A stretch of DNA of 4,255 bases. It comes from a virus (Duplodnaviria > Heunggongvirae > Uroviricota > Caudoviricetes). The translations under genes were made by a program, and so were the position numbers. Position 1 is the stretch's first letter. Every line of letters starts with the position of its first letter. The notes under the pieces were generated by a model. It worked only from the letters and a program-made list of their open reading frames with translations, did not search any database and had not been told where the DNA came from. This document shows, piece after piece, positions 1,307-1,660 of this stretch. Location of the stretch: IMG/VR virus record IMGVR_UViG_2711768016_000010. The stretch is one strand, 5' to 3'.

Positions 1307-1660
1307 CTACCCCAGATGAGTAATCCGAAGTTCATCCATACCACAGGTCCTGGCTATTCTGTTGTACTCCTGAACAAGAGCAAATAATTCTGAATTAGCA
1401 ACCATGAACTCATCGCAAACCCTCTGTATAGCATCACTATTCAGAATAATAACGTCTCTTCCCGAAAGACGATCAGGAGTACAGAACAAAACTGTCAAAC
1501 GGCTGAAGGCCTTTGCTCGTGCTGCATTGACTATATCAATACGCTGCCTAAGGATGAAACACCCCGACGCCTCATCAATATTCACTCTACCCACACCATA
1601 TGAATGATAAATATTTAATGCTGAAAAAACCATTAGACCGTATAACAAACACTCAATCAA
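1307..1660 (-). CDS. Hypothetical protein (about 108-117 aa) in the cargo slot downstream of the tRNA array
   Basis: Open frame 1660 to 1307 with stop TAG (complement of 1307-1309). The frame opens with TTG at 1660; first ATG is at 1633-1631. About 33% G at codon position 1 supports coding in this frame. Contains 3 AGA, 3 AGG and 3 AUA codons. No convincing Shine-Dalgarno before any candidate start; no family recognised. Confidence 0.4.
   Translation of the reverse strand: MIECLLYGLMVFSALNIYHSYGVGRVNIDEASGCFILRQRIDIVNAARAKAFSRLTVLFCTPDRLSGRDVIILNSDAIQRVCDEFMVANSELFALVQEYNRIARTCGMDELRITHLG

Follow-up and report, generated by a model that had tools for sequence, protein, structure and literature searches.

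The stretch of DNA analysed here, called the window throughout, comprises 4,255 nucleotides of the IMG/VR virus record IMGVR_UViG_2711768016_000010 (Caudoviricetes). It belongs to a Qin/mEp460-like lambdoid prophage of Escherichia coli, whose late regulatory region it represents; nearly all genes of the window lie on the minus strand, on which it is to be read. In this direction the order is RusA, the antiterminator Q, a tR′-like terminator, a transfer RNA (tRNA) of the type tRNA-Ile(CAU), a decayed tRNA-Arg, a tRNA-Arg(UCU), an open reading frame (ORF) at 1307-1660 and a DUF3927 gene. Phage mEp460_ev081, and a locus of E. coli AR_0017 that is nearly identical to the window, continue with holin, lysozyme and spanin genes. 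The ORF at 1307-1660, which has 117 codons when delimited mechanically, is the subject of this analysis. A preliminary description had singled it out for its AGA, AGG and AUA codons and had paired these with the tRNAs lying upstream. We consider it likely that the ORF holds a real protein-coding gene of 92 codons, running from GTG 1585 to TAG 1307, and that its codon load is compositional.

The evidence for a gene comes first of all from the comparison of three E. coli alleles at the DNA level, with few loci sampled per allele: allele A, which is that of the window, allele B (loci L007 and L003) and allele C (loci L093-L111, including L093, L103 and L110). The conserved coding sequence (CDS; 1307..1585, minus strand; MNIDEASGCF...ITHLG) comprises exactly 92 codons, or 279 nucleotides with its stop, in all three alleles, which share 68-72% nucleotide identity and differ by no insertion or deletion. 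DNA similarity between A and B spans window positions 1662 to about 1353, and the flanks are unalignable. By the method of Nei and Gojobori, the ratio of nonsynonymous to synonymous substitution rates (dN/dS) in the frame of the ORF takes values of 0.21-0.31 from allele to allele and of 0.15-0.27 among copies of allele C, whereas four control frames, two in the other sense registers and two antisense, gave 0.89-1.39. Differences between the alleles are distributed 24/22/44 over the three codon positions (chi-square P=0.007). The frame is thus conserved under purifying selection, and this shows that the gene is real. Loss of the frame in homologous loci, which the preliminary description had named as an outcome that would contradict it, is not what we observe.

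The fifth alternative frame, which is antisense and shares its wobble positions with the ORF, also has a low dN/dS, but stops interrupt it in A, in B and in L090, a Citrobacter-type locus. An antisense gene was rejected as a candidate: the 67-residue ORF on the plus strand at 1404-1607 owes its low ratio only to the shared wobble positions, meets these stops and matches no family. In allele C, at L099 (3979-4266, minus strand), the same antisense frame is fully open over 95 residues with an ATG start, a mirror ORF that could be mis-called. A non-coding RNA was likewise tried as a reading and rejected, as no Rfam family matches within 1307-1660.

Searches at the protein level extend the family beyond these alleles. 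A profile search of 1.84 billion proteins returned 19 relatives; the distant full-length relatives have 91-95 residues at 33-41% identity, and one of them is a RefSeq protein of the Citrobacter freundii complex. A word-indexed protein search returned near-identical copies plus a set at 54-60% identity. With respect to taxonomic spread, a scan of genome contigs that depends on exact patterns gave one E. coli locus only, and a viral scan with P0029 as query gave no match. Text searches of the literature returned no paper on the ORF, its peptide or its accession numbers. Among close copies the CDS is intact in all 69 that were checked, and the block formed by the tRNAs, the ORF and the DUF3927 gene is conserved at 94-100% in 75 loci. 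Across these 75 copies the 92-codon stretch has the lowest density of variable sites in the block, with 0.036 per base; the tRNAs have 0.066, and the spacer that precedes the ORF has 0.118. Of the ten variable sites in the 92-codon stretch, six are third codon positions.

The preliminary description had left the start of the ORF unclear for want of a good ribosome-binding site. The site is indeed weak in the window, but the start can be placed by comparison. Every distant relative, as well as alleles B and C, starts at the equivalent of GTG 1585 (MNIDE...). In allele C, AGGAG stands 4 nucleotides before the GTG, and several variants of this allele carry a stop 10 codons upstream of it with no intervening start codon. 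In allele B (L007) the stretch upstream of the GTG is out of frame and ends in TGA, and variants of this allele show length differences of 1-4 bases just before the GTG. Even within allele A, one close copy has a 1-bp deletion at 1629. The in-frame upstream extension of the mechanical 117-codon ORF (1586..1660, minus strand), which offers ATG 1633 and TTG 1660 as alternative starts, has a variable-site density of 0.067 against the 0.036 of the CDS and shows no third-position bias; no Shine-Dalgarno motif precedes 1633 or 1660. Judged from these alignments, the extension is most likely an untranslated leader. The start is probably GTG 1585, not 1633 or 1660, and the gene would then occupy 1307-1585 in place of the 108-residue version with an ATG start. 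Many gene callers, and the profile of the PHROG family phrog_2873, use this 108-residue version, and the annotated start is usually 16 codons too early.

The rare codons themselves had been counted correctly. Read on the minus strand, 1307-1660 holds 117 sense codons with AGA, AGG and ATA (AUA in the transcript) three times each, so that AGA and AGG account for 6 of 11 Arg codons and ATA for 3 of 11 Ile codons; these figures and the coordinates were exact in the preliminary description. The 92-codon part retains eight such codons (8.7%). That they are rare in E. coli core genes is also borne out, since they make up 0.48% (AGA 0.10%, AGG 0.11%, ATA 0.27%) of the 12,138 codons in 33 core CDSs of one host chromosome. 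The rate of the ORF is about 18 times this value (P=2e-8 for 8/92) and about 4 times the mean of 1.93% over all CDSs of the related phage mEp460_ev081 (P=4e-4 for 8/92). The enrichment therefore holds against genes of the host and of the phage. Against base composition it does not: the five other frames of the same 354 bases contain 8, 4, 3, 14 and 5 such triplets (range 3-14, mean 6.8) compared with 9 in the frame of the ORF, and mononucleotide shuffles of 1307-1660 give 6.1±2.2 (P=0.15). A similar frequency in non-coding frames is precisely what the preliminary description had stated beforehand would speak against its argument. Since the off-frame counts resemble that of the ORF frame, the codons are uninformative on whether the ORF is a gene.

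This result is readily understood from the behaviour of other genes. In ordinary E. coli genes, AGA, AGG and ATA triplets occur at 0.48% in frame and at 3.95% out of frame; the ORF merely does without the in-frame avoidance that is typical of E. coli genes. AT-rich accessory genes of the same phage type contain 4.95% of these codons on average (P=0.086 for 8/92), and usage per amino acid is the same in both: AGA and AGG provide 5 of 10 Arg codons (50%) and ATA 3 of 9 Ile codons (33%) in the 92-codon gene, compared with 43% and 34% in the accessory genes. The load is what a G+C content of 41-44% yields without selection against these codons, and it marks a foreign, probably weakly expressed gene, not one tuned to its neighbours. 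In an AT-rich stretch such as this one, richness in rare codons is evidence neither of coding nor of pairing with tRNAs. Off-frame triplet counts are the required control, and here they remove the codon argument. The earlier view that a real, foreign gene lies in the late region is thus retained on the grounds of frame conservation and composition, but not on the ground of codon usage, which had been given as its reason. In short, the codons were counted correctly but too much was read into them; beneath lies a real small gene, and its boundaries can now be set.

The tRNA block upstream comprises two intact genes on the same strand as the ORF, 110-185 nucleotides ahead of it. The tRNA with a CAT anticodon (1948..2023, minus strand) is ileZ-like: it is called by ARAGORN, scores 72.5 bits in Rfam, is annotated as 'tRNA-Ile' by the Prokaryotic Genome Annotation Pipeline (PGAP) and is named 'ileZ' in homologous records of Shiga toxin 2 (Stx2) phages. 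Following the PGAP annotation, we treat it as the lysidine-modified tRNA-Ile which reads AUA. The tRNA-Arg with a UCU anticodon (1771..1847, minus strand) is called by ARAGORN, matches the Rfam tRNA model with 68 bits and is annotated by PGAP in identical loci. Between the two, alignment to L003 reveals the decayed remnant of a middle, argN-like tRNA-Arg (1862..1938, minus strand). Its acceptor and T arms are recognizable and its centre is scrambled; the homologous place in L003 is a tRNA-Arg(TCG) according to ARAGORN. In the window no tRNA is called at 1862-1938, and only two are called overall. In the spacer 1848-1947, 44% of the sites vary among close copies, and insertions and deletions occur. 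The statement that the codons of the ORF are exactly those decoded by the adjacent tRNAs is right for AUA and AGA and too strong for AGG. A UCU-anticodon tRNA reads AGG through wobble only, and no tRNA with a CCU anticodon is present in the window. Between Q and the tRNAs, a terminator scan found an intrinsic terminator-like hairpin (2067..2086, minus strand) with a 7-bp stem containing five GC pairs, followed by the T-run TTTTTATT; its position suggests a tR′-like element.

The tRNA block and the ORF are not distributed alike. Among 5,426 complete E. coli genomes, 3,061 carry the block (7,597 places) and 1,314 carry the ORF (1,484 places). As the block is about five times as frequent as the ORF, something else follows most tRNA blocks. 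A mosaic boundary lies between the two, with the homology of alleles A and B starting at window position 1662, just downstream of the tRNAs. The tRNAs would serve the whole phage, which has about 250 AGA, AGG and AUA codons (79 of them in the structural genes alone), while the ORF holds eight. In the simplest reading, the 92-codon gene is one more AT-rich accessory gene tolerating these codons.

The position of the gene is conserved across backgrounds. It lies between Q and the lysis genes (holin/endolysin) in four of them, represented by mEp460, L007, L099 and the Citrobacter-type L090. It comes after the tRNAs in the window and in mEp460; in L007 the genes ahead of it encode a methylase and an AraC-like regulator. 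Its G+C content is 0.41-0.44, compared with about 0.49-0.50 for Q, RusA and an 85-residue ORF (orf85) at the other end of the window. Position-conserved and compositionally foreign, it is an AT-rich accessory gene of the 'moron' type. In both L099 (4461-4886) and L090 (4489-4914), a 141-residue TerB-domain protein is encoded directly after the small gene, and holin and endolysin follow; these backgrounds are unrelated, and the small gene and that of the TerB-domain protein may form a conserved pair.

The position of the gene also suggests that it is expressed late. Transcription would occur by Q-dependent readthrough and possibly also from a weak promoter of its own. A consensus scan found a weak sigma-70-like match, TTGAAA-16-AAAAAT, at 1678..1705 (minus strand; 9/12 matches), about 93 nucleotides upstream of the GTG; the number of promoter-like sites in this region is not clearly above that in shuffles. 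Downstream of the gene in the window allele, the terminator scan found nothing that qualifies as a clean terminator. Allele C has a good hairpin and T-run there, and in L090 such a hairpin lies upstream. The DUF3927 gene stands 35 nucleotides downstream of the 92-codon gene, and the two are probably co-transcribed.

At the protein level, the product belongs to a family that is already catalogued as 'hypothetical'. The profile of phrog_2873 matches the 117-residue ORF with E=3.8e-70 and the 92-residue CDS with E=5.6e-58. All nine aligned family members match phrog_2873, and seven of the nine match phrog_4827; neither PHROG family has been given a function or linked to a defence system, and neither is covered by a Pfam or NCBIfam model. 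Neither the protein nor the nine members gave a match in Pfam, NCBIfam or PADLOC, and a profile search of the sequences in the Protein Data Bank (PDB) returned only designed coiled coils, with E values of 0.004 or worse. In the AlphaFold2 prediction a short turn connects two long helices (residues 3-35 and 50-81), with a predicted local distance difference test (pLDDT) of 84.7 and a predicted template modelling score (pTM) of 0.71 from an alignment of only five sequences. The model points to a small soluble two-helix hairpin. Foldseek returned no match with an E value below 0.3, only generic helical hairpins at 3-15% sequence identity. Prefoldin arms, the SMC coiled coil, the TraM anti-activator and designed helical hairpins resemble the model in shape only, a likeness common to thousands of unrelated proteins which implies no function. 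Probably the protein would bind a partner protein through its coiled-coil hairpin and act as an accessory factor that modulates the host or the phage.

Several observations weigh against a 92-codon gene with a merely compositional codon load. Before its GTG the window allele shows nothing stronger than a weak Shine-Dalgarno-like GGTG/GGGT (GGTGTGGGT), and no PGAP gene call is present at this allele in the sampled RefSeq genomes. Its 8.7% places the ORF above every CDS of mEp460_ev081 in the share of AGA, AGG and ATA codons, the runner-up having 6.5%, and shuffles within codon positions gave 5.3±1.9 triplets, which makes the excess borderline (P=0.054). The tRNA-linked allele carries eight such codons, as against 3-5 and 1 in unlinked alleles, a trend that fits co-adaptation with the tRNAs. 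Finally, the function proposed above is drawn only from a generic fold and the neighbourhood. Some of these points would suit the view that the ORF is no gene at all, but a frame open by chance in an AT-rich spacer between genes, or that it overlies a regulatory region or a non-coding RNA. To the missing gene call and the lack of a strong ribosome-binding site in the window can be added that no CDS is annotated on this strand at the position of the ORF in mEp460_ev081, and that the rare-codon content is like that of non-coding frames. We nevertheless regard this view as highly improbable. Selection is frame-specific, and at about 30% nucleotide divergence the stretch has gained no insertion or deletion next to flanks that cannot be aligned. 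Remote protein homologues of equal length exist, other alleles are annotated in RefSeq as 92-residue hypothetical proteins, the structure prediction is confident, and the Rfam search named no RNA family at this place. A second departure from our reading accepts the gene and lengthens it: the window allele would produce a protein of 108 residues (from ATG 1633) or 117 residues (from TTG 1660), with a hydrophobic N-terminus that matters for function. The phrog_2873 profile has 108 positions, which correspond to residues 10-117 of the 117-residue ORF; clusters of 108-residue calls exist, WP_097292279.1 among them; and the extension is open in nearly all copies of allele A. The profile thus includes a 16-residue N-terminal extension which, according to the comparison made here, is probably not translated. 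With an extension that is frame-shifted or stop-blocked in B and C, broken by a deletion in one copy of A and bare of any Shine-Dalgarno motif ahead of either start, the longer product is unlikely, and all distant relatives speak for the 92-codon gene.

The remaining alternatives concern the tRNAs. If tRNA and cargo were co-adapted, the ORF would have gained or kept its AGA, AGG and AUA codons because tRNAs upstream on the same late transcript decode them, and its translation would be boosted or gated in this way. The tRNAs are cognate and close by on the same strand, the block of tRNAs, ORF and DUF3927 gene travels as a unit in the 75 loci, and the ORF ranks first among the CDSs of mEp460_ev081. 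Linked and unlinked alleles were compared as a test of this idea. Allele B has three such codons, allele C four to five and the Citrobacter-type L090 one. The sampled loci of allele C lack tRNAs for 4 kb in both directions, L007 and L008 have none either, and L090 has only an unrelated tRNA-Thr. The direction 8 > 5 > 3 > 1 is the one co-adaptation predicts, but the differences are not significant (Fisher P=0.17-0.57) and derive from three or four lineages, too small a number of independent ones for a decision. The sequence of allele B is the same with tRNAs about 3.5 kb upstream (L003, which has a CAT-anticodon tRNA and an Arg-TCG tRNA) and without them (L007). The positions of the rare codons are not conserved, codon 76 (AGA) being the only one common to A and B. 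Together with counts that do not exceed those of non-coding frames, shuffles or AT-rich accessory genes, and with a tRNA block that is commoner than the ORF and set off from it by the mosaic boundary, this makes co-adaptation quite unlikely. A specific pairing of tRNAs and cargo, as put forward in the preliminary description, is weakly evidenced and not supported for this ORF, whose usage is that of AT-rich accessory genes and whose tRNA-less alleles still carry 3-5 such codons. We also entertain, as an improbable but specific picture, that the tRNA-linked allele drifted to its higher load (8/92 versus 1-5) through co-transcription with its decoders and that the Q-dependent late transcript gates its translation, in the manner of a 'tRNA switch' which is off in the lysogen and on at induction. 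As a separate part of this picture, the family would be a widespread unrecognized small regulator acting just before lysis, an idea suggested by the fixed place of the family before four different lysis cassettes.

The other features of the window are described here in the minus-strand direction. The 85-residue orf85 (3619-3876) and the RusA gene (3245-3619) precede Q, all on the minus strand. Q starts at 3248, and its visible part (2418..3248, minus strand) matches the Pfam family PF03589 Antiterm with E=6.8e-55 and shares 99% identity with the product annotated as antitermination protein in L001. Its 3′ end enters an N-masked stretch at 2119-2417. By comparison with L001, eight bases (TAACAAGG) which include the Q stop codon are absent from the window (2119-2435), so that Q reads into the masked stretch. 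The run of 299 N occupies the expected late-promoter site, where close relatives have only about 30 bases. Either some 270 bp are inserted in the window at this place, or the length of the mask is arbitrary.

Downstream of the 92-codon gene, the DUF3927 gene (1140..1271, minus strand) encodes a small membrane-like protein of 43 residues, identified by Pfam PF13064 (E=1.7e-27) and by PGAP annotation. In PHROG the protein falls into phrog_1470, whose label reads 'TciB-like inhibition of cell division or resistance to colicin'; in this phage type the gene always accompanies the 92-codon gene. Between it and iraM lies a full-length match to the STnc100 small RNA family (Rfam RF02076; 885-1074, minus strand; 132 bits against a gathering score of 47, E=4.6e-30), near which PGAP annotates only a partial hypothetical protein. 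The iraM gene (524-859, plus strand; NCBIfam NF007393, E=4.7e-48) is a prophage-borne copy of the RpoS-stabilizing anti-adaptor, on the strand opposite to the late genes. Its G+C content is 35%, and ATA provides 6 of its 13 Ile codons. A DUF1737 fragment lies at 90-278.

Both ends of the window carry debris of insertion sequences (IS): the C-terminus of an IS3-family transposase at 1-93 (plus strand) and an 85-bp IS end at 4068-4152, which is 98.8% identical to an IS in L003 with HTH_Tnp_1 and rve ORFs. In L003-L006, the IS that matches window 4068-4152 stands 10 bp upstream of allele B, and gene callers join the IS end to the gene (protein P0017). A further insertion, of about 767 bp and with a 10-bp duplication, is found in L046 (2156-2922) at the equivalent of window positions ~1654-1663, that is at the TTG of the mechanical ORF and in the presumed leader. 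It parts the tRNAs from the small gene, and its size suggests an IS1 element.

What follows from these observations is modest and does not overturn current understanding. This allele is present in about 1,200 of 5,426 complete E. coli genomes (~22%), one of which is CFT073. For each of the 36 close RefSeq matches sampled, including CFT073, the annotated feature at this place is 'none', and a single sampled match to a more distant allele bears the annotation 'hypothetical protein'. Annotation pipelines thus miss a conserved 92-codon gene in these matches or, where they annotate it, usually place its start 16 codons early, because it has a GTG start with a weak ribosome-binding site. Furthermore, in temperate enterobacterial phages the family always lies after the late antiterminator and before the lysis genes, where toxins and host-modulating accessory genes also reside, and this position makes it a reasonable candidate for a functional screen.

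Two known systems help to place the locus. The tRNA block of Stx phages is already known, and AT-rich accessory genes rich in AGA, AGG and AUA codons are commonplace. Stx2 phages such as 933W, VT2-Sakai and their relatives carry ileZ-argN-argO upstream of stx2, in the same place as the block described here: just downstream of Q and with an accessory cargo gene next. The two blocks are homologous, with 85-88% identity over the terminator and tRNA region of the window, a region matched in at least 280 records of Stx and related phages. Three of the listed records name ileZ, argN and argO, for example AP012532.1 and AP012539.1. In contrast to ileZ-argN-argO, the block of the window has two intact tRNAs and a decayed middle one. 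Its cargo also differs from stx2, being a 92-residue non-toxin protein of unassigned function, for which no codon excess beyond composition could be demonstrated. The idea that Stx-phage tRNAs aid the translation of late phage genes rich in these codons is reportedly established in work on Stx phages.

The second comparison is with the morons of lambdoid phages, such as stx, bor, lom, the prophage AraC-like regulators and iraM. The 92-codon gene is likewise an AT-rich insert between conserved genes of the late region, found in the same relative place in several unrelated backgrounds, and its neighbours are accessory as well (the DUF3927 gene and iraM in the window, the AraC-like regulator in L007). 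A moron would be expected to bring its own promoter and terminator and to be expressed from the repressed prophage; of such signals, the scans of the window allele gave no more than the promoter-like match at 1705-1678 (9/12).

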